Source: Escherichia phage alpha3
Strand: one strand, 5' to 3'
Length of the DNA: 6,087 bases
Sequence record: NC_001330.1
Notes under the pieces: model-generated
Database searches by the model: none
Seen by the model: only the letters and a program-made list of their open reading frames with translations
Told to the model about the DNA's origin: nothing
Translations under genes and position numbers: made by a program
In this document: in pieces, positions 1 through 6,087 of the stretch
How positions within the stretch are numbered: the first letter of the stretch is position 1
Layout: each line of letters opens with the position of its first letter

Positions 1-26
1 TTGTTGACATTCCCTAAACCCTTATG

Positions 27-65
27 AGACTCTTGCTTCAACGAAACGAAGTAGGAGTCTTTTTT
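27..65 (+). terminator. Candidate stem-loop plus T-run immediately downstream of gene H (across the circular junction)
   Basis: Seen in sequence: 27-39 (agactcttgcttc) pairs with 48-60 (gaagtaggagtct), a 13-bp stem including 2 G-U pairs, with an 8-nt loop (40-47) followed by TTTTT (61-65). The stem is AU-rich, so it is probably weak. The right arm contains the AGGAG ribosome-binding site of the ORF starting at 66. Confidence 0.3.
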
Positions 66-209
66 ATGAAACCAGCTCATCGCCTCTATCATCCTGTGCT
101 TGGTTCTTGGTTGTTTAAGTGCCCCGTTTATGTTCGTTATGAGTCCCTTCATCACGGTCGCCTCATTAAGGTTCGTGCTGTTCGTGACCTTTCCCGCGTC
201 AGCAGTTGA
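66..209 (+). CDS. Hypothetical small basic protein (47 aa; 61 aa if the upstream in-frame ATG at 24 is used), H-A region ORF1
   Basis: ATG at 66 preceded by AGGAG (53-57) with an 8-nt spacer. Product MKPAHRLYHPVLGSWLFKCPVYVRYESLHHGRLIKVRAVRDLSRVSS is rich in R/K/H. About half the codons end in T (hand count ~25/47), matching the bias of the known genes. Stop TGA 207-209 overlaps the TTG at 206 of the next ORF. No homolog recognised. Confidence 0.4.
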   Translation: MKPAHRLYHPVLGSWLFKCPVYVRYESLHHGRLIKVRAVRDLSRVSS

Positions 210-433
210 TTGCCAATCCTAAAAATTGCTTTGACGTTGTCATTGCTGAGATTGACGTTACTCACCTTTCTGTCACTTGGTATGATTTTGAAGCTGAAGA
301 GTATGCTGAGTGTGATTCCGGCACTATGGAGCTTGTTGTTTCTCAGGTAAATTCTGGCGAGGTTATTCGCTCATCTGAAGACCTGTTTGTTGATGTTGAT
401 GATATGGAATGGCCTTATGAAATTGCGGAGTAA
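206..433 (+). CDS. Hypothetical acidic protein (75 aa from TTG 206; 35 aa if it starts at ATG 326), H-A region ORF2
   Basis: Open frame from TTG 206 (TTGA overlap with the ORF1 stop) to TAA 431-433. Product is strongly acidic (many D/E, e.g. DLFVDVDDMEWPYEIAE). Frame-specific T-ending codons are about 41/75 by hand count, versus about 10/41 in the +1 frame of the same stretch. No clear ribosome-binding site before 206 or 326, so the start is uncertain and translation may be coupled to ORF1. Confidence 0.4.
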   Translation: MIANPKNCFDVVIAEIDVTHLSVTWYDFEAEEYAECDSGTMELVVSQVNSGEVIRSSEDLFVDVDDMEWPYEIAE

Positions 434-436
434 GTC

Positions 437-526
437 ATGGAAACTGTTATCGGAAAATTTATTGCTCTGGCTATTGTTGCTCTTATGCTGTATGGAATTG
501 CCTGTTTGATTCGGAGGTTTCCGTGA
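437..526 (+). CDS. Hypothetical 29-aa hydrophobic peptide (single predicted transmembrane helix), H-A region ORF3
   Basis: ATG 437 preceded by GGAG (427-430) with a 6-nt spacer, 3 nt after the ORF2 stop. Product METVIGKFIALAIVALMLYGIACLIRRFP, stop TGA 524-526. About 15/29 codons end in T. Too short for the supplied ORF track. No homolog recognised. Confidence 0.35.
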   Translation: METVIGKFIALAIVALMLYGIACLIRRFP

Positions 527-699
527 AATATTTTAGTTTGGTAGATGAACATTATGCTTACTGCCCTGATACAAGGATTTTGCACATTACTCGTAGTCGT
601 GTTTCTGACCCTCGGTATGAGCGTCGCTTTCTTACTGATGAGGAGCATTTTGCACTTTTGGATTGGTTAAAAAATCGCCCAACTTACATTAATTCTTGA
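523..699 (+). CDS. Hypothetical 58-aa protein with GTG start, H-A region ORF4
   Basis: GTG 523-525 overlaps the ORF3 stop (GTGA) and is preceded by GGAGG (513-517) with a 5-nt spacer. Product (M)KYFSLVDEHYAYCPDTRILHITRSRVSDPRYERRFLTDEEHFALLDWLKNRPTYINS. About 33/58 codons end in T. Stop TGA 697-699 lies inside the -35 hexamer of the gene A promoter. Not in the supplied ORF track. Confidence 0.4.
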   Translation: MKYFSLVDEHYAYCPDTRILHITRSRVSDPRYERRFLTDEEHFALLDWLKNRPTYINS

Positions 700-725
700 C
701 AGACCTTTAAAATACCCTCTATATT
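696..725 (+). promoter_or_regulatory. Sigma70-type promoter for gene A (pA analog)
   Basis: Perfect -35 TTGACA (696-701), 18-nt spacer, -10 TATATT (720-725), about 35 nt upstream of the A start codon. Position matches pA in the phiX174 H-A spacer. Predicted start site around 732-733. Confidence 0.6.
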
Positions 726-755
726 GCCCTCATAGTTTCACTACGAGGGCTTTTT
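726..755 (+). terminator. Rho-independent terminator-like hairpin in the H-A spacer / gene A leader (TH analog)
   Basis: GCCCTC (726-731) pairs with GAGGGC (745-750); an inner 3-bp helix 733-735/741-743 is possible; followed by TTTTT (751-755). The right arm contains the gene A ribosome-binding site GAGGG (745-749). Confidence 0.5.
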
Positions 756-758
756 CGC

Positions 759-2243
759 ATGGCTACTGAAATCTTCTCTGATGTTGTTAAGTCTGTTTGG
801 TCGCACGCTACGGCTAAGCATGCTCATCTTCGTATGGCTGTTCAGGTTGATAATCGTAGTCGCCTCCTTTCTGACCTCGTTTATCAGTTGGAAAAACGCC
901 TTTCTGAAGAGACTCATTTGGATGATGAGACTCTTGCCATTTATGAATCTCAGACTGCCCTTCTGGAAGACCATATGGCACTGGTTCGGAAGTGTGCTGC
1001 CCAACTTGATAATAGTAACACTATAGACCACCGTACCCCTTTGGATGCCGAATGTGTTTTCCTGTTTGAAATGATTTGCCCGGGTGTTCGCTACGGTAAA
1101 ACGTTAAATTCTCTTTGGACTAAGTATGTTGTTCAATGGCCTGAGAAGTTAATCCGTCAGGAGTTAGACATGGTTAAGCCTTTATCCTTTAAGGATGAGG
1201 TTGCCAAGTACATGGAGAAGATGCAGGAAAAAACACGCAAAAATCGCATGACTCAGAAAGTTATTAATGAGATGCGTATTGCTCACCAAAAAGGCTGGTT
1301 CTTCGTATTTGATACGTTAACCCTTGCTGATGACCGTTTGCAGGCTTTTAATGAAAACCCCAATGCTCTTCGTGATTATTTCAGGACTGTTGGTCGAGCT
1401 GTTCTGCGCGCTGAAGGTCGTTCGGTCAAGGATTCCTACAACGACTGCTATCGCTATCTTTGTGTGCCGGAGTTTGGAGGTCAGCACGGCCGTCTTCATT
1501 GGCACGTTGTGCATATGGTGCGGACTCTTCCTTTGGGAAGTCATGACCCTAATTTCGGTCGCAAGGTACGTAATTATCGCCAGATTAACTCGTTCCGTGG
1601 CATGTGGCCTTATGGCTTCACGCAACCGATAGCTGTTCGCTATCAACATGACGCTTATTCCCGCAAAGGTTGGCTGTGGCCTGTTGACAAAACAGGAAAA
1701 GCAATGCAGAGTAAGCCGTATCAGGCGGTCGCATGGTATGTGACCAAGTATGTAGCCAAGCAATCTGACCAGCGTCAGAAAGCTATTACCGAGAGACAAA
1801 AGAAATGCAAGAATCCATTAATGGCAATCTGTCTGAAGAAAGAATTTCGGGTACGCAGCAGTCGGAAACTCGGAATGGAGCTCCCGTCAATGGCTCATCT
1901 GAGCAACAAGGTACTTCTGGAACTGAGCCGAATCAGCTTCGATTCCAGTCCTCTGTATCAGATAGTGAAAGAGAACGCCAAAAAGCAATTGACCTTGAAC
2001 ATCGGCGCGCTGCCTTTGCACGTCATTTTGGATGTGCGCCCGGAAGTGAGAAGCATGTTGAAAACTATTCGTCGTTTGATGAAAAAGACACCCGAGTTCA
2101 ATTGGCAGAGTTCTATCGCTTCAATGACGGTCACTTTAAAAAATGGGGATATTTCTGATGAAGCACGTCAATACATTATTGATGCAGGAATTACGCCTAC
2201 TGATTTGCGAGCTAAAGCGACTCAGACTTTCGGCGGTAAGTGA
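759..2243 (+). CDS. A: Replication initiation protein A (rolling-circle nickase/ligase), 494 aa
   Basis: Strong similarity to phiX174 protein A as recalled (FVFDTLTLADDRL, NPNALRDYFR, CVPEFG..GRLHWH, and the active-site tyrosine pair in YVTKYVAK). GAGGG ribosome-binding site 9 nt upstream. The in-frame stop at 708-710 excludes a longer N-terminus. Contains gene B, the (+) origin and the start of K. Confidence 0.93.
   Translation: MATEIFSDVVKSVWSHATAKHAHLRMAVQVDNRSRLLSDLVYQLEKRLSEETHLDDETLAIYESQTALLEDHMALVRKCAAQLDNSNTIDHRTPLDAECVFLFEMICPGVRYGKTLNSLWTKYVVQWPEKLIRQELDMVKPLSFKDEVAKYMEKMQEKTRKNRMTQKVINEMRIAHQKGWFFVFDTLTLADDRLQAFNENPNALRDYFRTVGRAVLRAEGRSVKDSYNDCYRYLCVPEFGGQHGRLHWHVVHMVRTLPLGSHDPNFGRKVRNYRQINSFRGMWPYGFTQPIAVRYQHDAYSRKGWLWPVDKTGKAMQSKPYQAVAWYVTKYVAKQSDQRQKAITERQKKCKNPLMAICLKKEFRVRSSRKLGMELPSMAHLSNKVLLELSRISFDSSPLYQIVKENAKKQLTLNIGALPLHVILDVRPEVRSMLKTIRRLMKKTPEFNWQSSIASMTVTLKNGDISDEARQYIIDAGITPTDLRAKATQTFGGK
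1002..1031 (+). other. Viral-strand (+) origin of rolling-circle replication, 30-bp protein A recognition/nick site
   Basis: CAACTTGATAATAGTAACACTATAGACCAC matches the phiX174 origin (CAACTTG/ATATTAATAACACTATAGACCAC as I recall it) apart from a few changes in the AT-rich centre. Predicted nick between G1008 and A1009. It encodes AQLDNSNTIDH of protein A. Confidence 0.8.
1221..2243 (+). CDS. A*: A* (internal in-frame restart product of gene A); start codon uncertain (ATG 1212, 1221 or 1248)
   Basis: By alignment the phiX174 A* start (MKSRRGFAIQ) falls on EKTRKNRMTQ here. The nearest in-frame ATG is 1221, with GGAG at 1214-1217 but only a 3-nt spacer. ATG 1248 has no ribosome-binding site. Confidence 0.3.
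   Translation: MQEKTRKNRMTQKVINEMRIAHQKGWFFVFDTLTLADDRLQAFNENPNALRDYFRTVGRAVLRAEGRSVKDSYNDCYRYLCVPEFGGQHGRLHWHVVHMVRTLPLGSHDPNFGRKVRNYRQINSFRGMWPYGFTQPIAVRYQHDAYSRKGWLWPVDKTGKAMQSKPYQAVAWYVTKYVAKQSDQRQKAITERQKKCKNPLMAICLKKEFRVRSSRKLGMELPSMAHLSNKVLLELSRISFDSSPLYQIVKENAKKQLTLNIGALPLHVILDVRPEVRSMLKTIRRLMKKTPEFNWQSSIASMTVTLKNGDISDEARQYIIDAGITPTDLRAKATQTFGGK
1805..2158 (+). CDS. B: Internal scaffolding protein B, 117 aa, encoded inside gene A in another frame
   Basis: Acidic/Q-rich N-terminus and a C-terminus QLAEFYRFNDGHFKKWGYF that matches phiX174 B (PAEFYRFHDAEVNTFGYF). Stop TGA 2156-2158 overlaps the K start. Confidence 0.9.
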   Translation: MQESINGNLSEERISGTQQSETRNGAPVNGSSEQQGTSGTEPNQLRFQSSVSDSERERQKAIDLEHRRAAFARHFGCAPGSEKHVENYSSFDEKDTRVQLAEFYRFNDGHFKKWGYF

Positions 2244-4959: not shown

Positions 4960-4984
4960 AAGGCTGCCGCACTCCCGGTTAGAT

Positions 4985-5069
4985 GCCTGCCCAGTGTAGG
5001 GCAGACCGAGCCGTACGGAGATACCCGATAAACTAGGAACGTGGAAGGCGTTAGCCGCCTTCCCTCCTG
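4985..5069 (+). other. Putative complementary (-) strand origin: primase (DnaG) recognition region in the G-H spacer
   Basis: The 135-nt G-H spacer contains a 6-bp hairpin CTGCCC/GGGCAG (4987-5004, loop AGTGTA), the palindrome CCGTACGG (5011-5018), and an 8-bp hairpin GGAAGGCG/CGCCTTCC (5043-5063, loop TTAGC) followed 4 nt later by CTG (5067-5069). G4-type origins are hairpins with a 5'-CTG-3' primer start on their 3' side. Confidence 0.45.
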
Positions 5070-5094
5070 CTAAGCCCAAAAAGGAGTTACAGCG

Positions 5095-6087
5095 ATGTTA
5101 GGTGCCGTTGTTGGTGGCATTGCCTCAGCCTTAGCTAGTGGTGCCGCTTCGAAATTATTTGGAGGCTCTCAGCGTGGAGTTTCTGTTATGCAGCAAGGTG
5201 CCGAGTCTGCCGGATTGACTAACGGCGGCGGCGCCATTTCTATGGATAATGACCAAGGTATTCAGTCTGCTATTCAAGGCTCGAATGTTCCTCCTGCTGG
5301 TCAGCTTCCTGAGTCTCAGAACTCTGGTGTTATGGCTGATGCTGGTAACATGCTTCGTAATGCTGGAAAGTCTTTGCTTGACGGAACTATTCAGGCTGGT
5401 TCTGATAAAGTTAAGCAAGCACTTATTGATAAGTTGATTGGAGGTAATGATGCTAAAGACCGAGGAAAGGCAACCCGCGATTACTTGGCTGCGGCCTTCC
5501 CTGAGCTCAACCCATGGGAACGTGCTGGAGCTGGTGCTTCCACTGCCGGGTTAGAATCTTCTGCTCAGAATCAGCAGAAAGAGATGCTGAAGATGCAATT
5601 GGATAATCAGAAAGATATTGCAAAAATGCAGATGGATAACAATTTGCAGATTGCTGGTATTCAGTCTGCCACTTCTCGTCAAAATACGAAGGATTCTGTT
5701 TATGCCCAGAATGAGATGCTTCAGTATAATCAACGTGAGTCGCAGGCACGCGTTGCGTCTATCCTCGCCAACACTGACCTCACGACTAAACAGGCTACCC
5801 ATGAAATCATGAGGATGGCCCTTACCCGTGCTCAGGAGACTGGTCAGCATTTGACTAACTCTCAGATTATGGCTTTGGAGAAAAAGGTCTATGCAGAAAT
5901 TGGAAAAATTCATCAAGATACTCAAAACTCTCGCTATGGTAGCTCTCAAGTTACTGCCGCTGCGAAAGATGTTACGAATATGATTACCGATGCCGCTTCA
6001 GGTGCTTCTGATTGGGTTTCTCAGCAGTGGAATTCGTTCTTTAAGGATGGTAAGTCCAACGGTATTTCCCTTAATACCAGAAAATAA
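5095..6087 (+). CDS. H: Minor spike / DNA pilot protein H, 330 aa
   Basis: Glycine-rich hydrophobic N-terminus MLGAVVGGIASALASGAASKLFGG (phiX174 H: MFGAIAGGIASALAGGAMSKLFGG), a conserved central block (RDYLAAAFPEL, IAGIQSATSRQNTKD, VYAQNEML) and the C-terminus KDGKSNGISLNTRK. AAGGAG (5081-5086) with an 8-nt spacer. The stop is the last codon of the window. Confidence 0.95.
   Translation: MLGAVVGGIASALASGAASKLFGGSQRGVSVMQQGAESAGLTNGGGAISMDNDQGIQSAIQGSNVPPAGQLPESQNSGVMADAGNMLRNAGKSLLDGTIQAGSDKVKQALIDKLIGGNDAKDRGKATRDYLAAAFPELNPWERAGAGASTAGLESSAQNQQKEMLKMQLDNQKDIAKMQMDNNLQIAGIQSATSRQNTKDSVYAQNEMLQYNQRESQARVASILANTDLTTKQATHEIMRMALTRAQETGQHLTNSQIMALEKKVYAEIGKIHQDTQNSRYGSSQVTAAAKDVTNMITDAASGASDWVSQQWNSFFKDGKSNGISLNTRK

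Follow-up and report, generated by a model that had tools for sequence, protein, structure and literature searches.

A probable three-gene accessory operon between genes H and A of alpha3-like microviruses

In the genome of Escherichia phage alpha3, the region between genes H and A carries three conserved open reading frames (ORFs), here called ORF-I, ORF-II and ORF-III, which probably form an accessory operon of the genus Alphatrevirus. The stretch of DNA analysed, referred to as the window, is the 6,087 nucleotides (nt) of sequence record NC_001330.1, and all features described below lie on its + strand unless stated otherwise. Since gene H stops at position 6087 and gene A begins at position 759, positions 1-758 are indeed the H-A spacer, as a first-pass annotation made from the letters of the window had assumed. 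Within it, ORF-I (66..433) codes for a protein of 122 amino acids (aa), ORF-II (437..526) for a single-pass membrane peptide of 29 aa (METVIGKFIALAIVALMLYGIACLIRRFP), the C-terminal tail of which is basic, and ORF-III (523..699) for a 58-aa protein. The 122-aa length of ORF-I requires one extra C in a run at 193..195, which reads CCC in the window and CCCC in all 14 relatives aligned, including the resequenced alpha3 genome DQ085810.2; as the window is written, ORF-I is split into 66-209 and 206-433. The four same-strand ORFs reported by the first-pass annotation (66-209, 206-433, 437-526 and 523-699) are therefore present in the letters of the window, but the relatives have three.

The alignment of the H-A region comprised the window and 14 distinct relatives, namely resequenced alpha3 (99.6% identical to window positions 1-760), NC3, Lilleven, St-1, ID62, MG945254, NC35, ID21, WA45, WA13, phiK, NC28, NC29 and ID32. 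The gene order H, ORF-I, ORF-II, ORF-III, A is constant in every alpha3-like genome examined, and the ORFs are kept in 13 of the 14 GenBank relatives as well as in all metagenomic alpha3-like contigs, where ORF-I measures 120, 122, 129 or 154 aa, ORF-II 29 or 30 aa and ORF-III 56 or 58 aa. Intact sequences numbered 22 for ORF-I (120-154 aa) and likewise 22 for ORF-III (56-58 aa in 21 of these genomes and 70 aa in phiK, where the frame is extended), the exceptions being the window and St-1, both with single-base differences in homopolymer runs. All indels in the cassette are either in frame or preserve the junctions between the ORFs, and the seven indel blocks found in ORF-I among 22 sequences are without exception in frame.

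Selection was assessed by pooled Nei-Gojobori estimates of the ratio of non-synonymous to synonymous substitution rates (dN/dS), computed for either 13 GenBank genomes or 22 sequences, the latter with bootstrap 95% confidence intervals (CI). For ORF-I the ratio was 0.24 (CI 0.18-0.31) among the 22 sequences, with 1.2-1.8 in the other frames, and among the 13 genomes it was 0.19 for the whole ORF and 0.067 for its N-terminal half, for which values of up to 5.1 were obtained in other frames. ORF-III gave 0.14 (CI 0.08-0.24) and 0.081, respectively, and in the 13 genomes the other two frames ranged from 1.0 to 5, with 1.0-1.8 for the two ORFs taken whole. For comparison, the non-overlapped parts of genes A, D, F, G and H yielded 0.054, 0.10, 0.196, 0.47 and 0.135. 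Variable sites are distributed over the first, second and third codon positions as 43/34/96 in ORF-I (13 genomes) and 12/7/30 in ORF-III, and log-odds scores for codon usage, with genes A, F, G and H as training set, exceed zero in the proposed frames only, that of ORF-I included. The bias towards T at the third codon position that had been counted by hand was reproduced, the four ORFs of the window having in-frame fractions of 0.52, 0.54, 0.50 and 0.56, compared with 0.38-0.70 in the known genes A, F, G and H; it is also frame-specific, as shifted frames gave 0.20-0.32 with the exception of 0.47 in the +2 frame of 437-526. Finally, in none of 2000 mononucleotide shuffles was 66-699 completely tiled by ORFs of 28 aa or more. 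On this comparative evidence, ORF-I and ORF-III are to be regarded as protein-coding genes under purifying selection. The first-pass view of the region as compact coding sequence rather than spacer is thus borne out by conservation and selection, and the ORF preservation, frame maintenance and synonymous-biased substitution that it had proposed to look for were all found, in 22-25 genomes.

The product of ORF-I appears as a soluble protein with a basic N-terminal half (isoelectric point (pI) 10.4) and an acidic C-terminal half (pI 4.05). From only 19 sequences, AlphaFold2 modelled it with a predicted local distance difference test score (pLDDT) of 91.4 and a predicted template modelling score (pTM) of 0.83, and the fold so predicted with confidence matches no known one. 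A hypervariable segment (330..390, approximately codons 81-105) covers a predicted helix (residues 85-97) and the loop that follows it; among 14 alphatreviruses this is the most diverse 60-nt stretch of the genome, its nucleotide diversity (pi) of 0.363 equalling that of spike protein G and of a coat-protein F loop, and the local dN/dS is 0.45-0.55 versus 0.02-0.11 in codons 1-65. The combination of a confidently predicted, unmatched fold with a spike-like variable patch points to an unrecognised host interaction. In one sub-lineage (L019 4122-4586, L021 2008-2472, L022 2811-3275), an in-frame acidic insertion of 32-34 codons after codon 3 brings ORF-I to 154 aa; in the same three loci the loop of the hairpin upstream of ORF-I, described below, is enlarged by 17-18 nt. 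The most divergent ORF-I (129 aa) is found on contig L023 (820-1209), with a DNA identity to alpha3 of 50%, compared with 82% for H, 92% for ORF-III and 78% for A, a contrast suggestive of mosaic evolution or of ORF-I alone diverging very fast. An upstream start of ORF-I at ATG 24 was ruled out because indels in the T-run put this codon out of frame in most relatives.

ORF-II would span the membrane once, with a mean Kyte-Doolittle hydropathy of 2.78 over residues 8-25. Its residues 1-21 are almost invariant, and its C-terminal tails come in five differing versions, each with two or three basic residues and each ending at the start of ORF-III. ORF-III starts with ATG in NC29, ID32, L023, L024 and L028 and otherwise with GTG, and was modelled by AlphaFold2 as a beta-plus-helix protein (pLDDT 76.8). 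An assignment to the OmpR/ToxR winged-helix DNA-binding domains was rejected, as neither a helix-turn-helix with recognition helix and C-terminal wing nor a match to Pfam Trans_reg_C was found. The stop codon of ORF-III (TGA, 697-699) lies within the -35 hexamer of the analogue of promoter pA. In phiK (L015, 694-734) this hexamer, at the equivalent of window positions 696-701, reads TTGGCA and not TTGACA, which abolishes the stop codon and thereby extends the ORF to 70 aa.

The three ORFs are closely joined. The stop codon of ORF-I (TAA, 431-433) is followed after a 3-nt gap by the ATG of ORF-II at 437, and in L023 the TAA abuts the ATG directly; ORF-II and ORF-III overlap by GTGA at 523-526, an overlap present as GTGA or ATGA in 21 of 22 genomes and replaced by a 1-nt gap in ID32, and junction indels of +3 and +2 nt leave both ORFs intact and adjacent. 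These two junctions of the first-pass annotation thus hold, as do its three Shine-Dalgarno motifs, AGGAG (53..57, 8 nt before ATG 66), GGAG (427..430, 6 nt before ATG 437) and GGAGG (513..517, 5 nt before GTG 523). The second of these lies within the last codons of ORF-I and the third within the end of ORF-II, where an AGGA/GGAG core is found 4-9 nt upstream of the start in all variants. With stop and start codons that overlap or lie within a few nucleotides of each other and each downstream Shine-Dalgarno motif placed within the preceding ORF, the layout fits a predicted translationally coupled operon.

With regard to distribution, matches to ORF-I and ORF-III were confined to Alphatrevirus when 50,697 phage records were searched by tblastn, all 25 records of the genus having both, and protein searches returned 19 and 12 clusters, respectively, all on microvirus contigs of about 6 kb. 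Word-indexed searches of 5.8 billion proteins led to alpha3-like microvirus contigs only, and a hidden Markov model (HMM) profile scan of 1.84 billion representatives gave microvirus proteins only, the most distant being P0030 on contig L023. No similar sequence was detected by blastn in 5,426 E. coli genomes; scans of the three proteins against Pfam, PHROGs, NCBIfam and PADLOC returned nothing at or near threshold, PDB sequence profiles gave chance-level matches only, and an Rfam scan gave nothing relevant. The three genes are therefore orphans for which no relatives were found outside Alphatrevirus. Accordingly, no foreign donor of the cassette was found in the databases searched (phage records, protein sets and E. 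coli genomes), and its base composition is not deviant (GC content 0.42 versus 0.45 for the genome; T at the third codon position 0.5-0.56, matching phage genes), so that genome-typical GC content and codon usage give no sign of a recent foreign origin.

The cassette is flanked by conserved control elements. Directly after the gene H stop codon lies the segment TTGTTGACA (1..9), which includes a perfect -35-like TTGACA at 4-9; TTGTTGAC[A/T] is kept behind the H stop in 22 of 24 genomes (NC29 has TTATTGACA and the St-1 record TGTTGACA). It is followed by a hairpin (26..65) in which 14 base pairs are formed between 26-39 and 48-61 around a loop at 40-47, with a T-run (TTTT) at 62-65. The fold of 26-61 has a free energy of -20.1 kcal/mol (z = -4.8), and none of 200 shuffles was as stable. 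Across 20 genomes the pairing holds in 93.7% of cells versus 44-57% with slid partners, two pairs show compensatory changes, and GACTCT (28-33), at the core of the 5' arm, does not vary. Because of the T-run that follows it in alpha3, the hairpin scores as a terminator, 26-65 being the sole strong terminator-like site on the + strand in a genome scan, and in alpha3 it looks like one. Its 3' arm sequesters the Shine-Dalgarno motif of ORF-I at 53..57, of which GGAG is invariant in 20 of 20 genomes and the leading A is found in 18 of 20; ATG 66 is invariant as well.

At the other end of the cassette, the analogue of pA (696..725) consists of TTGACA, 18 nt and TATATT, matches the consensus at 11 of 12 positions and is the best such site in the genome; its -35 and -10 are conserved and its spacer is variable. 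It is followed by the hairpin GCCCTCATAG...CTACGAGGGC with TTTTT (726..755), just before the gene A start codon ATG 759, with a fold of -14.2 kcal/mol; the paired region 726-750 shows compensatory changes in L018, L023, L029 and L031 (GCCTTCAAAG...CTTTGAGGGC). In NC35 (L011), a 29-nt deletion at position 703, corresponding to window positions 703-731, removes the spacer of pA together with its -10 and, from the terminator hairpin, the 5' arm; as this is a viable isolate, its gene A would need transcription that comes from upstream and passes through the cassette.

The same order of elements is known from phiX174, whose H-A spacer consists of TAA, 9 nt, TTGACA, 17 nt, TTTCAT, the hairpin GCCTCC...GGAGGC, TTTTTT and ATG, and whose annotated pA transcription start falls within this hairpin. 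Positions 696-761 of alpha3 repeat the arrangement (TTGACA, 17-18 nt, -10, GC-rich hairpin, T-run, ATG), with the hairpin at 726-755 corresponding to the phiX174 terminator hairpin, and the layout recurs at positions 1-68 before ORF-I. The phiX174 region, in contrast, measures 63 nt and contains no ORF, and alpha3-like phages have about 690 nt more; in view of the shared promoter and hairpin layout, their genomes amount to the phiX174 arrangement with about 690 nt placed between the H stop and the pA -35.

Taken together, it is likely that 66-699 is a three-gene accessory operon of Alphatrevirus, expressed by read-through and, more tentatively, serving an interaction with the host. ORF-I would be a 122-aa folded cytoplasmic protein with a basic N-terminal half, an acidic C-terminal half and a hypervariable patch, ORF-II a peptide of 29 aa crossing the inner membrane once and ORF-III a 58-aa beta-plus-helix protein. 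The cassette would be transcribed as the 3' tail of long mRNAs reading through gene H, with transcription ending at the hairpin and T-run at 726-755 (T-run 751-755). The hairpin at 26-61 would attenuate transcription and/or bury the ORF-I Shine-Dalgarno motif, resulting in small amounts of protein, and ORF-II and ORF-III would then be translated by coupling. The membrane peptide, the spike-like diversity of ORF-I, the restriction to one clade and the frameshifted ORF-I of St-1 weakly suggest that the products are not structural but interact with the host at or near the inner membrane, acting for example in superinfection exclusion, host takeover or counter-defence, and that they may be dispensable in laboratory culture.

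Several observations weigh against this reading or parts of it. The whole coding case is built on sequence comparison and predicted structure. A hairpin of -20 kcal/mol over the ORF-I Shine-Dalgarno motif is expected to block initiation strongly, which sits awkwardly beside purifying selection on the gene. Moreover, the T-run after the hairpin is interrupted in ID21, ID32, WA45, NC28, L023, L026, L029 and L031, so that a terminator function is doubtful in these relatives, and masking of the ribosome-binding site or stabilisation of the RNA may be the conserved role of the hairpin. The frameshifts in St-1 and in the window may be sequencing errors and not evidence of dispensability. ORF-II is short (29 codons), and its dN/dS among the 13 genomes does not discriminate between frames, being 0.36 in its own frame and 0.32 in frame +1.

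Possible, though on balance unlikely, is a version in which the cassette has a promoter of its own, the TTGACA behind gene H, the hairpin holding the ribosome-binding site, the T-run and the ATG being a second copy of the pA/terminator module. Transcripts starting in the 5' arm of the hairpin (approximately 33-39) could not form it, and would thus escape termination and free the ORF-I Shine-Dalgarno motif, so that strong selection on a gene whose ribosome-binding site is buried would no longer be paradoxical. TTGAC[A/T] stands behind the H stop in each of the 24 genomes, despite variation in the 12 nt or so that come next, the segment 1-9 is placed relative to the H stop as the pA -35 of phiX174 is, and the latter phage has the same order of elements with a transcription start within its hairpin; furthermore, in GGAG[G/T]CTTTTTTATG the start of ORF-I in alpha3 agrees with the start of gene A in phiX174 at 14 of 15 positions. 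TTGACA at 4-9 may accordingly be the -35 of a weak, pA-like cassette promoter. However, a promoter scan found no acceptable -10 after it; GAGACT (26-31), at a spacing of 16 nt, matches TATAAT at only 3 of 6 positions and was not reported by the scan, and its conservation is equally explained by pairing with the ribosome-binding site. Outside GGAG[G/T]CTTTTTTATG the similarity to the phiX174 modules is weak, the alignment of the segment with the phiX174 spacer being barely above shuffles (p ~0.05) and that with alpha3's own pA region not above them. A duplication of the pA module was therefore not adopted, since the layout fits but the alignment statistics are weak.

With its own promoter the cassette would be an autonomous promoter-to-terminator unit like a phage moron. 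Morons are defined in temperate tailed phages, not in lytic single-stranded DNA (ssDNA) phages. The cassette resembles them in being present in one clade and absent at the H-A junction of phiX174, in being flanked by terminator-like hairpins and in coding for small, probably dispensable proteins that include a membrane peptide; it differs in that its base composition and codon usage are those of the rest of the genome, and for a promoter of its own it shows a conserved TTGACA at 4-9 with no convincing -10. In its most elaborate and rather doubtful form, this idea supposes an autonomous accessory module derived from duplication of the pA/terminator unit, in which ORF-II is the membrane anchor, ORF-III its partner and ORF-I the hypervariable effector of superinfection exclusion or counter-defence. 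Such a system, if true, would aid the growth of alpha3-like phages on hosts closed to phiX174 and G4, namely E. coli B, K-12 and wild strains. In the Bullavirinae, to which 11 genes and no accessory content are usually ascribed, it would then be the first gene set of a host-interaction or 'arms-race' kind to be described.

It is improbable that only ORF-I and ORF-III are genes and that 437-526 owes its conservation to a nucleotide-level role, such as that of an RNA or ssDNA element or of a coupling spacer, its ORF being incidental. Apart from the shortness of ORF-II and the indistinguishable frames already mentioned, this reading could draw on the lower synonymous divergence of the stretch (dS 0.21 versus 0.44-0.75). 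However, ORF-II is intact in all 22 loci covering the region; its dN/dS among 22 sequences is 0.41 (CI 0.20-0.77), and its variable sites, distributed as 11/3/10, leave the second codon position most conserved. The changes comprise 13 synonymous codon variants (GAA/GAG, CTG/TTG, ATC/ATT and others) and conservative replacements (I/V, F/L, A/V, A/S and L/F), and five unrelated 3' ends each keep 28-30 codons, a basic tail and a stop at the start of ORF-III. Third positions vary at 10 of 29 sites in ORF-II, which is below the 30 of 57 in ORF-III in a comparison made without a formal test. The nucleotide diversity of ORF-II is not an outlier in the genome and thus gives by itself no pointer to a separate nucleotide-level element, and the stretch has no Rfam match. 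Universal preservation, the types of substitution and the behaviour of the junctions suggest that ORF-II is very probably a gene. On one contig (L032, 298-534; protein P0022), the membrane segment of ORF-II is fused in frame with ORF-III into a single ORF of 78 aa, which would suggest that the two act together; coverage of L032 is only 2.2x, and the fusion may be an assembly error.

Very little speaks for four separate, translationally coupled ORFs, with 66-209 and 206-433 joined by the stop/start overlap TTGA. This structure is the literal reading of the letters of the window, and the older alpha3 record M25640, an independent record of the same laboratory, is 100% identical to it over positions 1-586. 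However, where the window has CTTT-CCC-GCG at 189-198, the resequenced alpha3 genome, all 13 other GenBank relatives and the 9 metagenomic contigs containing ORF-I have one more C, which merges the first two of the four ORFs into the single ORF of 120-154 aa. The TTG at 206, the putative start of the second, has no ribosome-binding site, and the fused ORF-I is modelled as one compact fold, as judged by its pTM. Two further discrepancies lie near the missing C, the window having G where DQ085810.2 and the other closest relatives have C at 335 and 338, so that ORF-I reads VV instead of LL, and both look like old gel-reading errors. The coupling at TTGA 206-209 proposed by the first-pass annotation is therefore an artefact of the base omitted at 193-195, and the missing C and the two G/C differences are probably errors of the old alpha3 record, still in use as a reference sequence. 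Among the genomes examined, a split ORF-I is confined to the window and St-1. In the latter (GQ149088, L008), a TTT run at approximately 226-232, corresponding to window positions 229-231 or thereabouts, has one T fewer, which splits ORF-I into ORFs of 108 and 68 aa; this is either a sequencing error or a real loss of ORF-I in a phage long passaged in the laboratory.

It is hardly credible that 66-699 is non-coding, be it a spacer or an element acting in cis in replication or packaging, for instance a complementary-strand origin: the canonical annotation leaves the region empty, stop codons are few in T-rich sequence and ORFs persist in an alternative frame and on the minus strand too, but substitutions show a strong codon periodicity and a synonymous bias in a single frame only, indels all respect the frames, shuffled sequence never yields the full tiling, and the frame-independent substitution pattern expected of a cis-acting element is absent, as is an Rfam match. 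The two other ORFs, a Leu-rich one in an alternative frame (387-509, +) and one of 77 aa on the minus strand (415-648, -), were rejected as genes, their codon-usage log-odds being negative or zero and the substitutions following the proposed + frames. Both persist in relatives and look like by-products of the T-rich codons of the membrane segment.

Putative genes at this locus are already on record, so that the first-pass claim of undescribed content does not stand. The alpha3 gene H record M25640 marks four ribosome-binding sites in the spacer, three of which are the motifs at 53-57, 427-430 and 513-517, and Chantranupong & Heineman 2012 (PMC3324380), citing Rokyta et al., refer to an additional stretch that bears 'putative genes' in alpha3-like microviruses; none of the adaptive mutations they report falls into it. 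In the phage Lilleven (MK629527), the same three ORFs at the same locus are annotated as hypothetical proteins (QBZ71502-QBZ71504; UniProt A0A4D6DYX2), the coding sequences 5397-5765, 5769-5858 and 5855-6031 corresponding to window positions 66-433 (plus one base), 437-526 and 523-699. These sources only note or automatically annotate the ORFs, and the record of the window splits the first of them by its one-base omission. As the first-pass annotation had stated for phiX-like genomes, the reference records DQ07987x, DQ085810, GQ149088 and X60323 list canonical genes only, as does a 2026 description of a new alpha3-like phage (PMC13029530), and a study of the "annotation completeness" of phiX174 used alpha3-group genomes only for the conservation of phiX174 ORFs. 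In the searchable literature, with Rokyta et al. 2006 and Kodaira et al. 1992 known through citing papers and GenBank features, no analysis of function or selection was found for the three ORFs. New here are the corrected gene count, the evidence for selection, the anatomy of the control elements, the structure predictions and the hypervariable patch.

Textbooks present the 11-gene genome of phiX174-type phages as an example of complete annotation. Among the three genera, one would carry three more conserved genes, omitted from reference records and even from papers of 2026, and owing to this omission about 10% of the genome is treated as non-coding in work with alpha3, St-1, WA13, NC28 and their relatives, including experimental evolution, phage therapy and generative genome design. 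Being small and genetically tractable, the system permits direct tests of function. A further outcome of the analysis is that the alpha3 reference sequence probably contains an error of one base.

A more suitable site for the complementary-strand origin lies elsewhere in the window, in the conserved spacer between genes G and H (4960-5094), which is GC-rich, 135 nt long and contains two strong hairpins (CTGCCC..GGGCAG and GGAAGGCG..CGCCTTCC). Its diversity is low (pi 0.038 at 5011-5070 in 14 genomes). An origin of the G4 type was reportedly described for alpha3, St-1 and phiK by Sims et al. in 1979. The G-H spacer is probably this origin, which makes the H-A region an unlikely one. With respect to anti-restriction, the presence of no EcoKI site and one EcoBI site in alpha3 was uninformative, and the idea was dropped. 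Finally, in NC29 (L017, approximately 2480-2712) the interval between genes C and D exceeds that of its relatives by about 190 nt, gene D starting at 2713 instead of at about 2520.

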